In this document: positions 2,161 to 63,679 of the stretch, one piece after another
Layout: each line of letters starts with the position of its first letter
Numbering within the stretch: the stretch's first letter is position 1
From: an uncultured Candidatus Saccharibacteria bacterium
Lineage (GTDB): Bacteria > Patescibacteriota > Minisyncoccia > Portnoybacterales > UBA2143
DNA: 64,000 nt
NCBI GenBank assembly: GCA_964594155.1
Contig: CAZQLH010000001.1
Location: 74,132-138,131 of the forward strand
Reading direction: 5' to 3'
The notes under the pieces: model-generated
Databases searched by the model: none
What the model was told of the DNA's origin: nothing
What the model saw: the letters and a program-made list of their open reading frames with translations, nothing else
Translations under genes and position numbers: made by a program

Positions 2161-3203
2161 AATATTTTTTCAATAAATATTATAATCAAGCCAATTACAG
2201 CCATTACTCCGTTAATCATCCAAAAACGCATGGTAATCTTTGATTCAGGCCATCCTTTTCCTTCAAAATGATGATGAATAGGCGCAGATAAAAAAACTTT
2301 TTTATTTCTAATCTTTCTAGAGGTTATCTGGATAATTACTGAAAGAGATTCCATAACCGGAATAAAGAAAATAAAGGGCAAAATTAGAAAAGCATTGGTT
2401 AGCATAGCAATAATTCCCAAAGTAATTCCCAAAGACATAGCTCCGGTATCTCCCATAAAAAAACGTGCCGGATAAATATTAAACCATAAAAAAGCCACTA
2501 AAGCGCCGATAATCACTCCGCAAAAAGCAGCTAAATCCATTTTTCCTTGAGCAAAGGCAATTACTCCATAAGAAGCAAAAGCAATTAAAAGTATTCCTCC
2601 GACTAATCCGTCTAATCCGTCTGTTTCATTTGTTGAAAAAGCAGTTGCTACTAAGACAAAAACAAAAATAAGAATATACCACCAGCCAATGTTAAAATCA
2701 CCAATAAAAGGAACATGAATCAAATCCCAGTCCAGTTTATAAAAAAACCACCAAGCGCCAAAAACAGCAATAAAAGCATAGATCAAAAGACGGTGTCTAA
2801 TTTTTAATCCGCCTCCATTAGGCCCTATTTTTAAAATCCCAAGAAGATCATCGCCTAATCCAACCAAAGCTGAAGCTATTAGGGCGCCCAAAGGCAAAAG
2901 GGTTTCCTTGCGAGTTAAAAAGTTGAAATTTTCTAAAATACTTCCTTCGCCTATTTGAGCTAAAAACCAAAAAAGCAAAGTTAGGAATAAAACAGTCCCC
3001 CAAATCAAGATACCGCCCATAGTTGGCGTGCCTTCTTTTTTCTTGTGAAATTTAGCAAAAACAGGCACTCCTTTGGTTCTAATTTGCTTGCCTAAACGGT
3101 ACTTATAGAGAAAATGAGTTAAAACTGGCGTCCAGGCCAAAGCAAAAATAAAGGAAATAGCTGCTAAGCCCAAAACGCGGGAAATGTAAAAAATATCAGG
3201 CAT
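2157..3203 (-). CDS. mraY: Phospho-N-acetylmuramoyl-pentapeptide transferase MraY
   Basis: 348-aa membrane protein with the MraY motifs FFMGDTGAMSLG and HHHFE, placed upstream of ftsW. Confidence 0.9.
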   Translation of the reverse strand: MPDIFYISRVLGLAAISFIFALAWTPVLTHFLYKYRLGKQIRTKGVPVFAKFHKKKEGTPTMGGILIWGTVLFLTLLFWFLAQIGEGSILENFNFLTRKETLLPLGALIASALVGLGDDLLGILKIGPNGGGLKIRHRLLIYAFIAVFGAWWFFYKLDWDLIHVPFIGDFNIGWWYILIFVFVLVATAFSTNETDGLDGLVGGILLIAFASYGVIAFAQGKMDLAAFCGVIIGALVAFLWFNIYPARFFMGDTGAMSLGITLGIIAMLTNAFLILPFIFFIPVMESLSVIIQITSRKIRNKKVFLSAPIHHHFEGKGWPESKITMRFWMINGVMAVIGLIIIFIEKIL

Positions 3204-3204
3204 A

Positions 3205-4128
3205 TTACCAAAGGTATGCTTTTTGAACCCAATTAATTAATCTTTCTGTTTGAAGAAATCTTTCTTGGGCTCCTAAAACAATTGTAATTAAATATTTATT
3301 ATTAGTTTCAATGACCAAGACCAAACATCCTTGAGCTTCTTCAGTATAGCCGGTTTTTCCGCCGACAATATTAGGCAAACGATTCAATAATTCATCAGTA
3401 TTAACCCAATGATGATTAATCTTTCCATCAGCTGAAGATAAATCAATGACTGGCGTTTTCATAATCTGCCAAATAATTGGATGGCTAAAACTATATTCAA
3501 CTAACTGAGCTATATCCTCAACAGTTGAAACATTTCCTGAATCATAGCCGCTTGAATCAATAAAATGAGTATTTTTCAATCTTAGCTTTTCAGCTTTTTG
3601 ATTCATTAGATCAATAAAATTTTTATCTACTTTCTGCTGTGTAATTTCAGCTAAAGATGCTGCTGCATCATTGCTTGATTCCATTAAAAGAGCATAAAGC
3701 AAACTCTTAACTGAAATTTTTTCATCAATCACTAATCCGCCCTTATCCCCATAAGCAGTAATAGCTTCTTTAGAAACAACTGCTATTTCTTCTAAATCTA
3801 TATTCTCAACAACAATTAAAGCGGTCATTAATTTAGTTAAACTAGCGATTGGCAGAACTTGATTAATGTTTTTTTGATAGAGAATTTTATTCTTATCTGG
3901 AATAAAAACTAAAGCTGCTTTTGCTTCAACTTCCGGCTCAGTTATATTCCAATCGCGAATAGGCAAAAAATTAGGATTAGCAAACCACAAGGCTGAAAAC
4001 AAAGAATGTTCCCATTTATTTAATTGAGTTTTTTCTTCTGTAAAAACATCTGAAGAAATCGGTTGCCCAATCAAAAAAGAAAAAGGATTCAAAAAAAGTA
4101 AAATAGTGATTAATGATTTAGCTAACAT
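3205..4128 (-). CDS. Serine-type D-Ala-D-Ala carboxypeptidase (peptidase S11, PBP5-like, short form)
   Basis: Carries the S11 active-site triad motifs SxxK (ASLTKLMT), SxN (ESSNDAA) and KTG (GKTGYT), with an N-terminal signal/anchor. Confidence 0.8.
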   Translation of the reverse strand: MLAKSLITILLFLNPFSFLIGQPISSDVFTEEKTQLNKWEHSLFSALWFANPNFLPIRDWNITEPEVEAKAALVFIPDKNKILYQKNINQVLPIASLTKLMTALIVVENIDLEEIAVVSKEAITAYGDKGGLVIDEKISVKSLLYALLMESSNDAAASLAEITQQKVDKNFIDLMNQKAEKLRLKNTHFIDSSGYDSGNVSTVEDIAQLVEYSFSHPIIWQIMKTPVIDLSSADGKINHHWVNTDELLNRLPNIVGGKTGYTEEAQGCLVLVIETNNKYLITIVLGAQERFLQTERLINWVQKAYLW

Positions 4129-6408: not shown

Positions 6409-7493
6409 TATGTTTTCCCTAGTTCTTTAATAATTTTCTTTTGTTGACGAGATGGTTTCTTAGGAACATTAACTTGAATTTTAACAATTAAACTTCCTTG
6501 TCCTTGTCCATACAATCTTGACATGCCTTTATTCTTTAATTCTATCATTTCTCCGGGTTGAATACCAGCTGGAATTTTTAATTTAACTTTTCCATCTAAT
6601 ATTGGTATTTCTATTTTATCGCCTAAAACTGCTTGGGCAAAGTTAATATTCAGATTAAAAACCAAATCATCTCCTTGTCGTTGAAATTGCTTATGAGGCT
6701 TAACATGAACATTGATAAATAAATCGCCGGCTGGTCCGCCATAAGGCCCTGCTTCTCCCTGATTAGACATTTTCAATGTCTGTCCATTATTAATGCCAGC
6801 TGGAATAGTAATTTTAATCTTGCTGATTTTTTTTATTCTTCCCTGACCGCGACATTCAGGACAAGTTTTCTCTGGCATCTCTCCGCGTCCATGACATTTA
6901 GAACATTGTCTTTGCTGAATAAACATTCCGAACAAACTACTGCTTCTTATTTGCTCATAACCGCTTCCTTGGCAATTAGAGCACTTTTTTAAAGATTTAC
7001 CGCCTTTTCCATCGCATTTTTCACAAACATTCATTTTTTTTAATTCTATCTCTTTTTTAACTCCATGAAAAGCGTCTTCTAAATCTATTTCTGTATCTAT
7101 AATAATATCTTGGCCATATTGAACAGTTTGTCTGGGTCTGGCCCCAAAGCCGAACATTTGTTCAAAAATCCGTCCAAAACCAAGATCTTCAAAAATATCC
7201 TGACCGCCAAAAGCATCGTAAAAAGAACCAAAATCCTGTTGGGAAAATCCCTGGCCAAAAGGCGCTCCTTCAAATACTTGACCATATTGATCATATTGGT
7301 CTTTCTTGTTTTTATCAGAAAGAACGCTATAGGCCTTACTAATTTCTTTAAATTTTTTTTCGTATTCTTTTTTCTTACTTTCAGGAGCCCGATCAGGATG
7401 GTATTTTAAAGCTAATTTTCGATAAGCTTTTTTGATTTCACTCTCTGAAGCGCTGCGAGGAACCCCTAAAACTTCATAATAATCTTTTGCCAT
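6408..7493 (-). CDS. dnaJ: Chaperone DnaJ
   Basis: J-domain with HPD (KYHPDRAP), a G/F-rich linker, four CxxCxGxG zinc-finger repeats and a C-terminal peptide-binding domain. Confidence 0.9.
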
Positions 7494-37005: not shown

Positions 37006-37880
37006 AATTTTTCAACAGCTCTAAGCTTGGCGCTTCGGCTTCGAATATTTAATTGTATTTCTTCTTGATTAGCTCTAATTGGCTTCTTAAATAAAATCTT
37101 TACATATCCATCTTTACCTGATTGACGAAAAAAATGTTTAACAATCCTATCTTCTAAAGAATGAAAAGAAATCACCACTAACCTGCCATTTGTTTCTAAA
37201 ACTTCTAAAGCTTGCGGCAAGGCCTTTTCTAAATTATCCAATTCATTATTAACAGCTATTCGCAAGGCCTGAAATATTCGCGTAGCAAAATGAATCCGTC
37301 CATATCTATACCTATTAGGAATCGCTTGTTTAATAATTTCTACTAATTGATCAGTTGTTTTAATTGGCTTAATCTTTCTTTTTTGACAAATCAATTTAGC
37401 AATTGAACGAGAATATCTTTCTTCTCCGTATTCTTTAAATACTTCCATTAATTCATTTTCTGTCCATTGATTAACTATTTCTTCAGCTGTTAAATCATTT
37501 CCAGAATAATTCATTATTAATGGCTCGTTTTTTTGAAAAGAAAATCCTTTTTTGCTTTTTTCAAAATGCCAGGATGATATTCCTAAATCAAGCAAAATTC
37601 CATTAACTAAAGCAAATTCATTCTCCTTTGTTATTTCCTTTAAATCAGCAAAATTTCCATGGGTTAAAATCAATCTCTGATTAGAAGCTTTTTTCTTTAA
37701 AATTTCTAAAATCCTTTTATCAGAATCAATTCCTAAAACTTTTCCATCTGGCTTGTTTTTTTCCAAAATTGATAAAGCATGCCCTCCAAATCCAACTGTG
37801 CAATCAATAAAATTCTTATTAAAAGACGGATTAAGATATTCTAAAACCTCTTTTAAGAGTACTGGCTGGTGCATAATCAA
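37002..37880 (-). CDS. rsmH: 16S rRNA (cytosine1402-N4)-methyltransferase RsmH (MraW)
   Basis: MIMHQPVLLKEVLEYL...DCTVGFGGHA is the RsmH N-terminal signature, and ISFHSLEDRIVK is the RsmH C-terminal motif. Confidence 0.9.
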   Translation of the reverse strand: MIMHQPVLLKEVLEYLNPSFNKNFIDCTVGFGGHALSILEKNKPDGKVLGIDSDKRILEILKKKASNQRLILTHGNFADLKEITKENEFALVNGILLDLGISSWHFEKSKKGFSFQKNEPLIMNYSGNDLTAEEIVNQWTENELMEVFKEYGEERYSRSIAKLICQKRKIKPIKTTDQLVEIIKQAIPNRYRYGRIHFATRIFQALRIAVNNELDNLEKALPQALEVLETNGRLVVISFHSLEDRIVKHFFRQSGKDGYVKILFKKPIRANQEEIQLNIRSRSAKLRAVEKL

Positions 37881-38308
37881 AACCCTAACTCTCCCAATTT
37901 AGCCGCTAAATCGCCAACTTCTTTTTCAGCTTGTTGCTTATATGACTCCCACTTATCTTCAGACCATATTTCTAAACGAGTATAAAGGCCGATAACAACA
38001 GCATTTTTTTTTAAGAAAGCATAATTCTTAAGATAGTCTGGGATAAGAATTCTGCCCAATCTGTCAAATTTAACCGACATAGCCCCTGCTAACATTACCC
38101 TGGCAAAACTTCGCGCTTCAACTTGACTTGATGGCAATTGTCCCAACTTTTTAGCTGTGTTTTCCCATTCCTTTGATGAGTAAAGAACCAAACAACTATC
38201 AATGCCGCGAGTAATAACCGCTCCCTGCTTAAAAGCGCGTCTAAACTTAGCTGGAATAGCTAATCTTTTTTTAGTATCAATTGTATGTTTGTATTCGCCA
38301 ATTAGCAT
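37877..38308 (-). CDS. mraZ: Transcriptional regulator MraZ
   Basis: 143 aa with two SpoVT/AbrB-like repeats (DTKKRLAIPAKFR and KFDRLGRILIPDYLKNYA). It is the first gene of the dcw half-cluster. Confidence 0.85.
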   Translation of the reverse strand: MLIGEYKHTIDTKKRLAIPAKFRRAFKQGAVITRGIDSCLVLYSSKEWENTAKKLGQLPSSQVEARSFARVMLAGAMSVKFDRLGRILIPDYLKNYAFLKKNAVVIGLYTRLEIWSEDKWESYKQQAEKEVGDLAAKLGELGF

Positions 38309-38313
38309 AGTTT

Positions 38314-38350
38314 TCCACAGTTTTACCTATTTATCCCCACCTTTATCCAC
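38314..38350 (-). promoter_or_regulatory. MraZ-box-like direct repeats GTGG(A/G) in the mraZ 5' UTR
   Basis: On the minus strand, GTGGA (38350-38346), GTGGGG (38340-38335) and GTGGA (38318-38314) are spaced about 10 and 21 bp apart, downstream of the promoter. This matches the known MraZ operator architecture (TGGGN direct repeats). Confidence 0.5.
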
Positions 38351-38369
38351 AATTGTTCTTTACACTCCC

Positions 38370-38459: not shown

Positions 38460-38513
38460 ACTTTTAATTCTAATCTTTTTTCTCTCCACAGATTATCCCC
38501 AATAATCAAAAAT

Positions 38514-58985: not shown

Positions 58986-60155
58986 TCAATTATATTCAAT
59001 AACTTCTATTTCTCTAATAGCTTTTGAAATTAATTTATCTAAATCTAATTCTTTTTCTAATTCCTTGATTATTTCTAATTTAGCTGCAGCGGTCTGTCGC
59101 TTGGGGACAAATAAAGTGCAGCAATCTTCCTGGGGTTTAATAGAAATATTAAAAGTTTTAATTTGTTCAGCTAAAGAAATTATTTCTTCTTTATCCATCC
59201 CAATTAATGGCTGGAAAATAGGGATCATTATATTCTCCTGGGTTATCTGGAAATTAGGCAAGGTTTGAGAACTAACCTGACCTAAGCTTTCTCCAGTAAC
59301 CAAAGCCTGATAATTTTCCTTTTGAGCAATGTCTTGGGCAATTTCTAACATTAATTTCCTGTAGAAAATAACTCGGTACTTAGCTAAGATTTTTATTTTT
59401 ATTTCCTTTTGAATTTCTGAAAAAGGAATAAGATAAAGTTTTAATTTTGACTGGTAATTTAAAAATACTTTAGCTAATTCTTTTGTCTTTTCAATGCTTG
59501 CCTTGGAAACCAAAGGAAAACTATGAAAATGAAGCCAAATATTTTCTGCGCCTCTTTTAGCTATTAAATAAGCAGCCACTGGAGAATCTATTCCCCCGGA
59601 AATTAAAGTTAATACTTTTCCTTGACTGCCTACTGGCAAACCGCCAGATCCTTTTTGTTTTTTAAAATAAATAAACCAGCCATGTTTTCTTCCTTCAATA
59701 AAAATTTCTTTTTTAGGATTATCAAGATTAACCTTTCTCTCTATATTCTCGGCAATCTCTTTTATTGCTTGCTCTGTTCTTTTTTTAACCAAAGGCCCCT
59801 TTTTAATCCTTAAAGCAAAACTTTCGTCTTTTTTAATCCAATCTTGGTAATTCTCTTTGACAAAATTATTCATTTGTTCAAAGCTTGCTTCTTCTAAAAA
59901 GCAAGCTTGAGCAAACCAAACAAGACCAAAAACCTTCTCTAAAACAGATGAAGTTTTTTTAAAATCTTTTGTTTTAACAAAGATTCTTTCACGCCAAGGA
60001 TAAATCTCAAACTCAATCTTTTGTTTTTTTAATAAAGAAGAAAGATTATTATTTAATCTCTTCTTTAATATCTTTTGAACTCCTTCTGACTTTAAAAAAA
60101 GCTCTCCAAAAGCCAAAATAAACCCTTGTTTTATTTTATTATCTTTATTATCCAT
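58986..60155 (-). CDS. thiI: tRNA sulfurtransferase ThiI (s4U8 synthase; THUMP + PP-loop ATPase)
   Basis: 389 aa with a THUMP-like N-terminal half and the PP-loop LISGGIDSPVAAY. The rhodanese domain is absent (short form). Confidence 0.8.
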   Translation of the reverse strand: MDNKDNKIKQGFILAFGELFLKSEGVQKILKKRLNNNLSSLLKKQKIEFEIYPWRERIFVKTKDFKKTSSVLEKVFGLVWFAQACFLEEASFEQMNNFVKENYQDWIKKDESFALRIKKGPLVKKRTEQAIKEIAENIERKVNLDNPKKEIFIEGRKHGWFIYFKKQKGSGGLPVGSQGKVLTLISGGIDSPVAAYLIAKRGAENIWLHFHSFPLVSKASIEKTKELAKVFLNYQSKLKLYLIPFSEIQKEIKIKILAKYRVIFYRKLMLEIAQDIAQKENYQALVTGESLGQVSSQTLPNFQITQENIMIPIFQPLIGMDKEEIISLAEQIKTFNISIKPQEDCCTLFVPKRQTAAAKLEIIKELEKELDLDKLISKAIREIEVIEYN

Positions 60156-60159
60156 AATC

Positions 60160-60450
60160 TTATTTTATATTAAATTTATTTTTATAAACTTCTTCTAATA
60201 TTTCTAAGGACGCTTGAACTGATGGGTTGTCAGTATTCTTTAATACCAACCTATCTTTGTATTTATTGTACAAAAAACCCAAAAACTCATCACCCCAAGA
60301 TGGTGTAAAAGTTATAACGCCCTCAAAGTCAACAATAATTTTTTCATCTTTTTTAACTTCTCTTAGAGAAGACTTAAAAGCAGTAATTGATTCCCTGCCA
60401 AATTGCCGACTATTTAAAGTTGTGCCGAATTTTTTAAGATATATAGTCAT
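60160..60450 (-). CDS. Small STAS-like / DUF4325-like protein (putative partner of the adjacent GHKL kinase)
   Basis: 96 aa reading KIIVDFEGVITFTPSWGDEFLG, which resembles STAS/anti-sigma-antagonist-like domains. It starts 4 nt after the upstream gene's stop. The family call is tentative. Confidence 0.35.
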   Translation of the reverse strand: MTIYLKKFGTTLNSRQFGRESITAFKSSLREVKKDEKIIVDFEGVITFTPSWGDEFLGFLYNKYKDRLVLKNTDNPSVQASLEILEEVYKNKFNIK

Positions 60451-60454
60451 TTTT

Positions 60455-61195
60455 TTAAAATTTAATTAATGCTAAACAACCTTGTAAATAAATATTTGAT
60501 TTTTCGATATTTAAATTAACCCTACTTTTATTAATTTTAAGCTTTGCATCACCAGTTTGAAAAATCAAATTTATTTCATTGTCAGCAACAACATTTCTAA
60601 CAAACTTTAATCCATTACCGCGATGCTCTGGAGCGCGTCCAGAGATTACTTCGTTAAAGGCAACATCTAACGCCTTCTGATGAGTTGATAATTTTGGTCT
60701 AACTTTTTTCAACGTTGCCAATATTCCCTGGCCTCTATCTGCTAAAACTATCTTTTTTCCATGTAAATCATAGGCAAAAAATACACCTGGAATATCTGGC
60801 CATTTACCTAAATTATGATCAAAAGAATTATTACCGATTTCGCCTGTAATAGCCGAAATCAAAGGGAATATTTTACCTAATTCTCTTATTTCCCCTAATT
60901 TACCTTCTAATTTTACTAATCGTGCTTGGAATACCGAACTATCAAGGCAATAAAAATCAGGATAGAATTCTGTCTTTAAATCACTTACAACCCAACTTCT
61001 TGCTAATTTAACAAGTAAACTTCTTGTATTATTTTTTATATAATTATCAACATCACTTCTTCTATAATATCTATGTCCAGTTATTCCTTTGCGAACTGAA
61101 GATAACTTATCAATATCATCCCACCGCCGTAAAGTTTGAATAGAAACGCCAAATATTTTAGACACTTGACCAATTGTTAGTAATTTTGAATTCAT
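60455..61195 (-). CDS. MerR-family HTH fused to a GHKL (RsbW/SpoIIAB-like) serine-kinase / anti-sigma ATPase domain
   Basis: The N-terminal LLTIGQVSKIFGVSIQTLRRWDDIDKL is a MerR HTH. The N-box is EIGNNSFDHN, the G1 box is ADRGQGI (DxGxG) and the G2 box is GNGLKFV. Confidence 0.6.
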   Translation of the reverse strand: MNSKLLTIGQVSKIFGVSIQTLRRWDDIDKLSSVRKGITGHRYYRRSDVDNYIKNNTRSLLVKLARSWVVSDLKTEFYPDFYCLDSSVFQARLVKLEGKLGEIRELGKIFPLISAITGEIGNNSFDHNLGKWPDIPGVFFAYDLHGKKIVLADRGQGILATLKKVRPKLSTHQKALDVAFNEVISGRAPEHRGNGLKFVRNVVADNEINLIFQTGDAKLKINKSRVNLNIEKSNIYLQGCLALIKF

Positions 61196-61275
61196 AATCT
61201 ATACATTATTATATATATCTATAGTATATTACATATAAATCTTTGTCAAATCTATACATCTATAGTTATCCACAG
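61196..61275 (-). promoter_or_regulatory. Repeated TCTATA(C/G) motifs upstream of the MerR-GHKL gene (candidate operator)
   Basis: tctatacat (61197), tctatagta (61219), tctatacatctatag (61252-61266). CTATAG is palindromic. Confidence 0.35.
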
Positions 61276-61300: not shown

Positions 61301-63679
61301 TTAATACCCTGTATTTTCTATTAATTTCTCTAATAAGCTTCTTGGAAAAATTGGCGGATTTTCTGTTAAGGCCTGATGATACAAAACAGTAGAAGGAGTT
61401 AAAGCAGGCAATGTATTCATTTCAATAATCAATAAATCCCCTGTTTTAATATTAGTAAAAGTATCAATTCGCGAATAGCCTTTTAATTTCATCTTATTAA
61501 CCATTTTCCCTATTAAGGACTTAGTTCTATTTAACGCTTTTTTATTCATAATAGTTTCTGGCGGCGGGGTGATATTTACCCCGGTTCCTCCTTGAAACTT
61601 TTCCTCAACTGTTAAAACCTCGCCTTCAGCCACAGTAATGCTTGGATTAAAAACCCTTAATTTGCCTTTGTCCTCAGCTACCCCTATGGTTGTTTCCAGC
61701 CAACCGCTTCTCTGACGATGTTTTAACTTATTCCCTTTAACCCTTAAAACATCTGTTTCTATGAATTTCTCAAAAAGCAGTTCCTTCATTGGCTCTAATG
61801 GCATTTCTAAAATATCATTCTGGTTTTTAAAAGTGTTCTTAGATACAGAAGTTGCCCTTGATTTAATCACTTCAATGTATTTCCTTAATTCATTAACTGA
61901 AAAAAGATGAACTACTCCGGAAGAACAGCCATCAGCGCGCGGTTTAACCACTATTGTATCAGCGTCTAATTCTTGACGCAGTTTTTTCCAAAAATCTTTT
62001 AATCTATTGTTTCTCAGGTTAAATAAATACTTGGTTTGAACAAGTTTTTTAGGAATAGGATTTAATCCCTTGATTTTTAAGCTTTTAATAAATTCAGCTG
62101 TTTTCCATTTATCCATTCCTAATCTAGAAACTCTTTCATCAGGCCCATTAAACTTAACTTTTTGTTCAGCCAATGTTTTCTGTAAATTTCCGTTTTCTCC
62201 ATCTCCGCCATGCAAAGCAATGAAAATAAAATCTGAATCTTTAATAAATTTATCCAAAGCCATGCCGGTTGGCTCAAAAAAATCCTGTTCATCTTTATCT
62301 TCTGATAAATCTAATCTATTTCTGGCTCTTCTTTCAAACATTCCTAATCTTTCTTTAGCTGTCTGGTAATTCCTGCAATTATCAATAATCTCTTCAACAG
62401 TATGGTTTAAAGTTAAATGATAAGGCAAGTGCCAGACCCGTCCGTCAATATCCCATAAATACGGCTGTGGATCATATTTTTTTGAATTGCGAAGTTTTAA
62501 CCAGGTATTGGTTCCGCTCATTAAAGAAACCTGTCTTTCTGAAGTATCTCCGCCAAAAAGAATATTGATTGGTTTTCTTTTTCTTTTGATTTTTAAATAA
62601 TTCTTGTTTTTCTCTTCTGGAAAACTAATATTATGGCGAAAACAGGCCTGTTTAACAATATATCTTAAAATATCTCTATGACTCATCCCCACTCTTGATG
62701 CTTGCTGGAATAAAAAGCTGTTTTGTTCCATTCCGCTAATCGGATTAAAATCAGAAAACCATATTTTGTTATCAGGCAGAACCCAGCCGTCAAATCTGCC
62801 AAAATCTTCCATTTCTAAAAGAGAAAATAACTGTTCTGCTTGTGTTTGAATTGTTTCTATTGTTTCATTGTTGAACCGAGGCGGACAATGATAAGTTACT
62901 TGTCGAGTAGGCAAATATTTTTTTCTGTAATCAAAAATCTGATGCTTAGTATAATCTGCCTCTATTTCTGTTGGAACTAAAGCCACGGGCAAGCCAAAGC
63001 GATTCTTTAGGATAATCACTGTAAATTCTATGCCTTGAACAAATGGCTCTATCACCACCCGCTTATCCATTCGTTTAGAAAAAAGCAATTTTGCTTTTTC
63101 CAACGCTTCTTCAGGAGTAGACACGGAAAAAACACCAATACTGGAACCGCCAGCAGCCGGCTTAACCACAGCTCGCTTAATATTATGTTTTTCAAAAAAA
63201 CTCTTTATAACTTGCTTATGATTATTATAATGTATTTTCAAAACATCTGAAGGAAAACCAAAAAAACCATGCTGCTTGATAAACTCATTGGCAATATATT
63301 TATCAAAAGCTCTTTTACATGTTTTAGAATCAGAACCAATAAAAGGAATATTATTCTTTTCAAAAAAGCTTTGGATTCCGCCATCTTCGCCAAAAGCGCC
63401 ATGTATCACTGGAAAAGCAATATCTGCTTTTTTAAGCAAGCGAATTAAAGATTGATCAGCCAAAGGCGAAGCAGTCTGTTTTAATTTAAAATCAAAATCT
63501 GAAGGAGTATTAGAATAAAGCTGGGAAATAGAAATCTGATAAGGGTTCTTTTTGGAATCAAAATAAAAAGGGATGATTTCAATTTTATCAGAACTCAAAT
63601 GATCTAAAACAGACCGAGCTGAATTCAATGAAATTCCCCTTTCCAATGAAGGCCCTCCGCAAACCAACGCTACTTTCAT
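61301..63679 (-). CDS. Tandem fusion of two D-alanine--D-alanine ligase-like ATP-grasp modules (792 aa)
   Basis: The Ddl N-terminal signature occurs twice: MKVALVCGGPSLERGISLNSARSV and, at about residue 370, PINILFGGDTSERQVSLMSGTNT. Each is followed by an ATP-grasp-like region. Confidence 0.7.
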   Translation of the reverse strand: MKVALVCGGPSLERGISLNSARSVLDHLSSDKIEIIPFYFDSKKNPYQISISQLYSNTPSDFDFKLKQTASPLADQSLIRLLKKADIAFPVIHGAFGEDGGIQSFFEKNNIPFIGSDSKTCKRAFDKYIANEFIKQHGFFGFPSDVLKIHYNNHKQVIKSFFEKHNIKRAVVKPAAGGSSIGVFSVSTPEEALEKAKLLFSKRMDKRVVIEPFVQGIEFTVIILKNRFGLPVALVPTEIEADYTKHQIFDYRKKYLPTRQVTYHCPPRFNNETIETIQTQAEQLFSLLEMEDFGRFDGWVLPDNKIWFSDFNPISGMEQNSFLFQQASRVGMSHRDILRYIVKQACFRHNISFPEEKNKNYLKIKRKRKPINILFGGDTSERQVSLMSGTNTWLKLRNSKKYDPQPYLWDIDGRVWHLPYHLTLNHTVEEIIDNCRNYQTAKERLGMFERRARNRLDLSEDKDEQDFFEPTGMALDKFIKDSDFIFIALHGGDGENGNLQKTLAEQKVKFNGPDERVSRLGMDKWKTAEFIKSLKIKGLNPIPKKLVQTKYLFNLRNNRLKDFWKKLRQELDADTIVVKPRADGCSSGVVHLFSVNELRKYIEVIKSRATSVSKNTFKNQNDILEMPLEPMKELLFEKFIETDVLRVKGNKLKHRQRSGWLETTIGVAEDKGKLRVFNPSITVAEGEVLTVEEKFQGGTGVNITPPPETIMNKKALNRTKSLIGKMVNKMKLKGYSRIDTFTNIKTGDLLIIEMNTLPALTPSTVLYHQALTENPPIFPRSLLEKLIENTGY

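Follow-up and report, generated by a model that had tools for sequence, protein, structure and literature searches.

A stretch of 64,000 nucleotides (nt) of contig CAZQLH010000001.1 (hereafter the window), from an uncultured member of the Patescibacteria (candidate phyla radiation, CPR), contains two adjacent genes, one for a protein of 246 amino acids (aa) that joins a helix-turn-helix (HTH) DNA-binding domain to a GHKL ATP-binding domain, and the other for a 96-aa STAS-like protein. The two genes form a genuine operon that is strongly conserved across Patescibacteria. Comparison of the upstream sequences indicates that its operator is likewise conserved and, as far as visible, dedicated to the operon's own promoter. 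On balance, we somewhat favour an interpretation in which the operon is a self-contained, autoregulated transcription switch of the partner-switching type, independent of sigma factors, with the kinase/STAS couple acting on DNA.

In the CapK/CapS and VapKSC systems, a GHKL kinase activated by single-stranded DNA phosphorylates a conserved Ser of a STAS protein (Chambers et al., EMBO J 2026, PMC13373217), whereupon the CapS repressor is released or the VapC toxin is freed (PMC13373217); CapK/CapS illustrates that a GHKL kinase and its STAS substrate can gate DNA binding (PMC13373217). The pair described here would extend this 2026 concept, with GHKL-kinase/STAS couples wired to DNA in at least two ways, the DNA-binding domain being carried either by the substrate or by the kinase, and with the GHKL-STAS cassette combined with many types of HTH. 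It also offers a functional context for the large, unannotated DUF4325 family and for a GHKL subfamily that current Pfam and NCBIfam models do not recognise; full-text literature searches returned no description of the CPR HTH-GHKL family or of DUF4325 function. Patescibacteria have tiny genomes with few recognisable regulators, and their transcription control is almost unstudied. The pair is among the most conserved CPR regulatory genes, with more than 50% identity across Parcubacteria, Microgenomates, Gracilibacteria and Doudnabacteria, and the combination of a conserved pair with a defined operator makes it an experimentally tractable entry to CPR gene regulation.

Conservation and pairing of the two genes

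Both open reading frames (ORFs) of the original prediction were found where it had placed them, on the minus strand and separated by 4 nt (Table 1). Homologues of the HTH-GHKL protein amounted to 5,562 clusters at 90% identity, the 120th best match still being 64% identical, and those of the STAS-like protein were comparable in number (6,670 clusters). The named sources of HTH-GHKL homologues were Patescibacteria/CPR, among them Portnoybacteria and Parcubacteria. When GTDB species were scanned with one genome each, relatives at 51–90% identity appeared in 456 loci/genomes, distributed over the Parcubacteria (Portnoy-, Yanofsky-, Colwell-, Moran-, Magasanik- and Falkowbacteria, Paceibacterota), the Microgenomates (Roizman-, Woese- and Levybacteria), Gracilibacteria and Doudnabacteria. 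By these sequence comparisons, identity above 50% across such deep CPR lineages is an unusually high conservation for the HTH-GHKL protein; it drops with lineage distance, which suggests that the pair is a vertically inherited core gene of the CPR. No relative was present on the viral contigs that were searched for the module, and a phage or mobile origin was rejected on that ground.

A homologue of the STAS-like partner lay directly downstream in 73 of the 75 orthologous loci with enough sequence (77 of 80 loci overall), with a gap of 3–38 nt, and the two genes are probably translationally coupled. All-against-all clustering of the flanking ORFs revealed no third recurrent gene beside the pair: TrmB-like ORFs are the commonest neighbour family of the MerR-type pair, yet this next family was found in 8 of 81 loci only, and the neighbours of the pair in the window, thiI and Ddl, were not conserved as neighbours in other genomes. 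The pairing extended to distant relatives. In Treponema, a stand-alone 186-aa GHKL homologue without HTH overlaps an 88-aa DUF4325 gene, and in Magasanikbacteria a homologue with a winged HTH (wHTH-GHKL) overlaps a 92-aa DUF4325 gene; the DUF4325 partners pass the Pfam cut-off in both. In other GHKL relatives, MerR is replaced by a MarR, HTH_24, HTH_11, TrmB or XRE domain. Since GHKL and DUF4325 are kept while the HTH is swapped or lost, the couple appears to be the conserved core and the DNA-binding domain to be modular. The comparison of gene neighbourhoods that the original prediction had called for thus bore out its proposed link between the two genes, the small ORF being conserved alongside the larger one even in relatives with a wHTH or none at all.

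The Treponema pair, found on contigs of metagenome-assembled genomes from gut (L081–L083, 4001–4824), is convergent with ruvB in a ruvC-ruvA-ruvB region, indicating that the GHKL-DUF4325 cassette also occurs beyond the CPR, there with no HTH attached. On the Magasanikbacteria contig (L084), two TrmB-family regulators of about 250 aa (3121–3867 and 6612–7379) stand on either side of the wHTH-GHKL/DUF4325 genes. In the window, thiI starts 4 nt past the stop codon of the STAS-like gene (60153–60162), with no terminator-like site found, and may be co-transcribed with the pair in this genome.

These neighbourhoods bear on the alternative that the pair is a mobile defence or stress system, which would act as a DNA-damage sensor like CapKS or VapKSC, or as part of MADS, and would control an adjacent immune or toxin locus. 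The kinase-then-STAS order is that of capK-capS, the PADLOC model mad1 matches the HTH (E 6.6e-12), and VapS is the best match of the partner profile in the Protein Data Bank (PDB). However, the mad1 match is confined to aa 1–51 and no other PADLOC model matched; in the 81 loci, neither a downstream operon nor a PIN toxin nor any other neighbour was conserved, and no VapC/PIN gene recurred downstream (thiI follows in the window). An internal STAS domain is missing from the kinase, as is a wHTH from the partner. Together with the viral contigs that lack the module and the pattern of identity across CPR lineages, which points to vertical inheritance, these observations make a role in defence highly improbable in our view.

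Table 1. Features of the HTH-GHKL/DUF4325 operon and its upstream region (positions are those of the window; the coordinates of the two genes count the stop codon in)
Feature	Position	Strand	Details and evidence
HTH-GHKL gene, 246 aa	60455–61195	-	ORF and homologues
STAS-like (DUF4325) partner gene, 96 aa	60160–60450	-	PF14213 match, E 1.2e-8; synteny
MerR-like/BldC-like winged HTH, aa 5–56	61028–61183	-	PF00376 (E 1.7e-12), PF13411, HTH_17
Linker, aa 57–85	60941–61027	-	Low pLDDT in full-length model
GHKL (Bergerat-fold) ATP-binding domain, aa 86–246	60458–60940	-	Model pLDDT 95.4; Foldseek
N-box EIGNNSFDHN, aa 119–128 (E119, N123, H127, N128)	60812–60841	-	Invariant in 69/69
G1 box DRGQG, aa 153–157 (D153, G155, G157)	60725–60739	-	Invariant in 69/69
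G2 box/end of ATP lid RGNGLKFV (R192, G193, G195, L196; GNGLKFV aa 193–199)	60599–60622	-	Invariant in 69/69
Codon of Ser51 in invariant PSWGDEF motif, candidate phospho-acceptor	60298–60300	-	78/78; aligned by hhalign to SpoIIAA S58
Predicted sigma-70-type promoter (TTGACA 61249–61244, 17-nt spacer, TACTAT 61226–61221)	61221–61249	-	Best regional match, 10/12
Operator copy TGTATAGATT, abuts/overlaps -35	61249–61258	-	Conserved as ATGTATAGATTTGACA in many loci
Operator-like copy ACTATAGAT, upstream of -35	61258–61266	-	Motif scan
Operator-like copy ACTATAGAT, over -10	61217–61225	-	Motif scan
Operator copy TGTATAGATT, 5' leader, ends at start codon	61196–61205	-	Position after the -10 conserved in orthologous loci
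TGTGGATAA word, about 17 nt upstream of -35, possibly outside the module	61266–61274	-	Exact reverse complement of DnaA-box consensus TTATCCACA

Domains of the two proteins

An AlphaFold model of aa 80–246, computed with a diverse alignment of 69 sequences, reached a predicted local distance difference test (pLDDT) score of 95.4 and a predicted template modelling score of 0.90. Searched exhaustively by HMMER, aa 61–246 gave 299 clusters at 50% identity; a full-length model made with a shallow alignment (pLDDT 61) was left out of the fold search. The top 50 Foldseek matches in the PDB were all GHKL/Bergerat folds (Hsp90/TRAP1, GyrB/ParE, topoisomerase II and VI-B), with E values of 4e-5 to 3e-4 and probabilities of 0.94–1.0, and 145 matches in all had E ≤ 1e-3. 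The nucleotide-binding residues of the three boxes (Table 1) and G137 were invariant in all 69 sequences, the most distant of which have 33% identity, and the three motifs named by the original prediction are present. These models and motifs confirm that the C-terminal domain, as predicted, has a GHKL fold and represents a divergent subfamily outside current profile libraries.

Its membership of the SpoIIAB/RsbW kinase subclass, rather than of GHKL in general, is a weaker claim. In hhalign alignments with SpoIIAB, the N-box falls on E46/N50/H54, G1 on DEGVG and G2 on RSGMGF. Relatives had sub-threshold Pfam matches to HATPase_c_2 (15/69), HATPase_c (9/69) and also HATPase_c_5, which covered most of each profile and reached 13–18 bits against cut-offs of 22–27. 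The window protein itself had no match to HATPase_c_2, whereas the matches to MerR and DUF4325 that the original prediction had also proposed to look for exceeded their Pfam cut-offs. Since the significance of profile-profile comparisons is marginal (P = 0.04–0.09), we infer the kinase subclass from the motif register, the domain size and the gene pairing; the RsbW/SpoIIAB-like GHKL ATPase originally predicted therefore stands as regards its fold, and less firmly as regards its subclass.

Two cysteines of the HTH-GHKL protein, C83 (codon 60947–60949; short N-terminal strand) and C240 (codon 60476–60478; last GHKL strand), were near-invariant in the MerR-fused CPR clade and may constitute a redox or metal site specific to the lineage. 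A redox-sensing pair as a general feature was ruled out, both cysteines occurring together in 31/69 relatives only.

The N-terminal HTH was matched by PF00376 over aa 7–44 (47.3 bits, Pfam cut-off 28.2) and by PF13411 (35 bits, cut-off 21.6). Its top NCBIfam match was BldC (NF033787); the protein is not a BldC member, because its 35.9 bits fall short of the cut-off of 77 and it has 246 aa with a second domain. Matches to PDB sequences (BrlR, TipA, BldC 6ama) were confined to the HTH, those to MerR-family structures ended at about aa 51, and the recognition helix SIQTLRRWD was invariant in the alignment of relatives. No coiled-coil dimerisation helix follows the HTH; instead, a linker of about 30 residues, too short for a STAS domain and with W68, F81, Y82 and C83 conserved, leads to the GHKL domain. 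The predicted MerR-type domain was thus recovered, its type being BldC/excisionase-like ('MerR-like') and without coiled coil.

The partner matched PF14213 (DUF4325, 'STAS-like domain of unknown function') with 35 bits against a cut-off of 23, in keeping with the STAS-like protein of the original prediction. The same annotation is carried by nearly all of the best 120 of its 6,670 homologue clusters, which NCBI names 'DUF4325/STAS-like domain-containing protein' and nothing further. Invariant residues in the 78 orthologues include K7, F8, G9, R15, G18, E20, F42, P50, W52, D54, E55, F56, N75, S77 and V78. A conserved phosphorylatable residue, which the original prediction had proposed to seek, was found in S51, invariant in 78/78 orthologues and aligned to Ser58 of SpoIIAA, the serine that is phosphorylated in that protein. 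The best solved-structure match of the partner family profile, with a marginal E of 0.18, was VapS (9z7o), and the alignment spans the DFxxV...S/P core that holds VapS Ser48. VapS is a demonstrated kinase substrate (PMC13373217).

In several respects the pair resembles SpoIIAB/SpoIIAA and RsbW/RsbV, namely a small single-domain GHKL with ExxxNxxxH N-box, DxGxG G1 and GxG G2, and an adjacent STAS partner with a Ser that starts the helix after the third strand. Kinases of the SpoIIAB/RsbW type bind and inhibit a sigma factor, and a PP2C phosphatase belongs to the circuit. By contrast, the present pair has no linked sigma factor or PP2C phosphatase, its kinase precedes the STAS gene and is fused to an HTH, its partner is a DUF4325 protein and not a canonical STAS (PF01740/PF13466), and its similarity to SpoIIAB is at the edge of detection.

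Promoter, operator and possible mode of action

The TTGACA...TATAAT layout of the predicted promoter recurs in orthologous loci. Around it, ATCTATA[C/G] (plus strand) is present in four copies of one orientation within 61197–61265. The whole window contains nine matches to this word, against 3.3 expected, a number reached by 0 of 100 shuffles, and exact TGTATAGATT occurs only at the two positions listed in Table 1. At least two exact direct copies of a 9-mer were found within 160 nt upstream of the pair in 71 of 80 orthologous loci. The words form a family, TG(T/C)ATAG(A/G)TTT, whose lineage variants include GTATAAGG, GGGTAGAT and GAGTAG, and the repeats, in the same orientation, lie over both promoter elements (-35 and -10) and the transcribed leader. 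They are most often 21 bp apart (37 cases), the next most frequent distances being 10, 20, 30, 43 and 53 bp, all multiples of a helical turn (~10.5 bp). The upstream TCTATAC/TCTATAG repeats, originally suggested as a possible operator, are thus strongly supported as such by the comparative data.

Exact operator copies were rare elsewhere, with seven only in 667 kb of orthologous flanks. The tandem query TGTATAGATTT-N9-11-TGTATAGAT, run on all metagenome contigs, matched at least 120 loci. Among the 120 matches listed, 51 lay directly upstream of a member of the HTH-GHKL family, the median distance to its start codon being 29.5 nt and the proteins having identities down to 40%; another 59, with no HTH-GHKL gene in the locus, were largely satellite repeats or other organisms with heterogeneous downstream genes. 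A regulon beyond the operon's own promoter was unsupported, the operator word not being enriched in the rest of the window or in the 667 kb of flanks; this search covered exact and tandem operator words, single low-affinity sites lying outside its scope. The positions of the repeats over the promoter argue for autorepression rather than MerR-style activation, and the operon accordingly appears, from its sequence, to repress its own promoter.

The operator also accounts for the N-terminal extensions 'MYRF...' or 'MYSF...' of annotated homologues (P0005, P0021, P0033, P0055, P0086, P0107 and others), which are the translation of operator ATG-TAT-AGA-TTT; these starts are artefactual, because gene callers choose the ATG inside the operator, as they also do in metagenome loci such as L106. 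On one metagenomic CPR contig (L108:1747–1776, minus strand), a second tandem operator, placed some 570 nt downstream from the STAS gene, precedes a 181-aa NYN/LabA-like ORF and is the sole hint of a further target gene. In two other loci (L121:529–753 and L186:38–262), a tandem operator is followed immediately, without an intervening HTH-GHKL gene, by a STAS-like ORF that ends at 54 aa; this arrangement may have arisen by rearrangement or decay of a copy, or from faulty assembly.

Classical MerR regulators possess a long coiled coil and a C-terminal effector domain, and bind a palindromic operator within a 19–20 bp spacer between -35 and -10. The HTH-GHKL protein differs in having a linker and a GHKL domain after the HTH, with neither coiled coil nor effector-binding domain, and its predicted promoter differs in that the spacer has 17 nt and the direct repeats flank or overlap the hexamers. 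A closer parallel is BldC of Streptomyces (PDB 6ama/6amk), also a MerR-like HTH without coiled coil or effector domain, which binds direct-repeat operators as cooperative head-to-tail multimers (PMC5859096), although it is a stand-alone protein of 68 residues and not fused to a GHKL domain. The absence of a coiled coil and the kinship to BldC fit the geometry of the operator, and we infer that the HTH binds direct, not palindromic, repeats.

In the mechanism that we propose, dimers or multimers formed through the GHKL domain would place their HTHs cooperatively, in the manner of BldC, on successive phased repeats, and the multimer would repress the operon's promoter. The GHKL domain would bind the STAS-like partner and use ATP to phosphorylate its Ser51, as SpoIIAB does with SpoIIAA and CapK with CapS; both the kinase activity and the phosphotransfer are proposed by analogy with these systems. 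The state of the GHKL domain (free or partner-bound, with ATP or ADP) would alter how the tethered HTHs are arranged or oligomerise and, through this, the occupancy of the operator. The kinase/STAS couple would in this way set transcription directly, DNA taking the place of the sigma factor, so that a sigma factor would be bypassed, as the original prediction had suggested for a fusion of this kind. Candidate input signals include adenylate charge, a ligand and a phosphatase not linked to the pair.

Several observations weigh against this interpretation. The best Foldseek matches of the GHKL domain are GHL ATPases (Hsp90, GyrB, topoisomerases; low TM-scores of 0.34–0.50) and not anti-sigma kinases. 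No Pfam, NCBIfam or PADLOC model matches residues ~60–246 of the window protein, sequence and profile searches of PDB sequences gave no solved structure for this domain, and hhalign against SpoIIAB (1TIL_A) was marginal (P 0.094), as it was against a shallow 27-sequence SpoIIAB profile with members at ≥75% identity (P 0.041). The pairing of S51 with SpoIIAA Ser58 has a low alignment probability and an ambiguity of one residue in register, T/S49 (73/78), one turn away, being an alternative acceptor. In the flanks of the 81 loci the pair has no linked phosphatase, and neither sigma factor nor phosphatase genes recurred there, unlinked genes elsewhere being possible; a PP2C motif regex screen of the window, crude and covering <10% of a genome, was also negative. 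Finally, it is only from the operator positions that we deduce that the HTH binds DNA and in which direction it regulates.

Some of these points suit a different explanation, in which the GHKL domain is not a kinase and works as an ATP-driven clamp as in GyrB, MutL, Hsp90 and MORC: dimerisation on ATP would make HTH binding cooperative, and the STAS-like protein would be a non-phosphorylated cofactor tuning the ATPase cycle. It would agree with the structural matches, all to GHL-type ATPases and none to an anti-sigma kinase, with the marginal sequence link to SpoIIAB and with phased direct repeats, which suit regulated multimerisation. Nevertheless, the domain has only ~160 residues and lacks a transducer domain, which in GHL ATPases provides the catalytic lysine. 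The weak Pfam matches of relatives are of kinase type, HATPase_c_3 is not among the families matched by at least two members, and the invariant Ser of the partner falls in the region of the SpoIIAA and VapS phospho-sites. We consider such a clamp unlikely.

The closest characterised systems to the pair are CapK/CapS, VapKSC and SpoIIAB/SpoIIAA, from which it differs in domain architecture, operator type and genomic context. With CapK/CapS it shares, besides the gene order, an anti-sigma-type GHKL kinase with N-terminal HTH, a STAS partner with an absolutely conserved Ser and, as we propose for the present pair, an autoregulated operon in which promoter occupancy is controlled directly and independently of sigma factors. 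However, CapK is an HTH-STAS-GHKL protein, so that by its published description the present kinase is set apart from it by the lack of an internal STAS domain. CapS is a STAS-wHTH repressor that binds DNA, whereas the partner here is a bare DUF4325 protein and the kinase carries the sole DNA-binding domain; the sites of CapS are palindromes, in contrast with direct repeats phased at 21 bp; and CapKS lies upstream of immune operons in Proteobacteria, in contrast with a pair that has no conserved neighbour and is widespread in Patescibacteria. In VapKSC, likewise, the substrate of a GHKL kinase is a small STAS-only protein; the present pair differs from that system by the absence of a VapC/PIN gene, of an internal STAS in the kinase and of any association with defence islands.

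The role of CapK's own HTH, dispensable in published assays, was left unknown by them (PMC13373217), and the present family suggests, by analogy, one possible role for it. That dispensability would also agree with another scenario, in which the HTH only autoregulates or tethers and the real output is the STAS-like protein, switched by phosphorylation and acting on an unlinked enzyme, toxin or regulator, as VapS does on VapC and as do STAS proteins of the SypA/HsbA type. The Treponema GHKL that keeps its DUF4325 without an HTH implies that fusion to a DNA-binding domain is dispensable for the couple's function, and no regulon was detected past the operon's own promoter. On the other hand, no conserved third gene stands as a possible target, the recognition helix is invariant and the operator is kept across phylum-level lineages. 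The repeated fusion of the same GHKL to MerR, MarR, HTH_24, TrmB and XRE domains argues for control of DNA binding as a main function, and we regard an output through the STAS-like protein as decidedly unlikely.

A more far-reaching form of the sigma-independent switch can be put forward tentatively, and we think it possible although doubtful: the pair would act as a master switch throughout the Patescibacteria lineage, passed on by vertical inheritance and with an anti-sigma-type kinase wired directly to DNA by a BldC-like HTH, and GHKL-DUF4325 would be a general regulatory plug-in that combines with HTHs of many classes (MerR, MarR, TrmB, XRE). The phosphorylation state of the kinase/STAS couple would perhaps report adenylate charge or the host-attached versus free state of the cell, and transcription would be set without any sigma factor or dedicated phosphatase.

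Other features of the window

Next to the pair, a 792-aa ORF (61301–63679, minus strand) encodes two tandem complete D-Ala-D-Ala ligase modules in one polypeptide, with two stretches each of Dala_Dala_lig_N and Dala_Dala_lig_C, and is thus an unusual fused double Ddl.

The word TGTGGATAA found upstream of the promoter (Table 1) occupies the same relative place in eight related loci (L001, L002, L011, L017, L026, L027, L029 and L076). It could be a DnaA site, a MraZ-type site or something else, the reading as a DnaA box being uncertain because the same word family is arrayed before mraZ. That array, formed by TGTGGATAA, GTGGGGATAA and TGTGGAAAA spaced 12–20 nt apart, is located at 38311–38351 and 38493–38501, upstream of mraZ (37877–38308, minus strand), and directly precedes mraZ-rsmH-ftsL-PBP of the dcw cluster; it looks like an array of MraZ boxes or a cluster of DnaA boxes. 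Words with one mismatch to the DnaA box occur 31 times in the window, twice the 15.5 expected.

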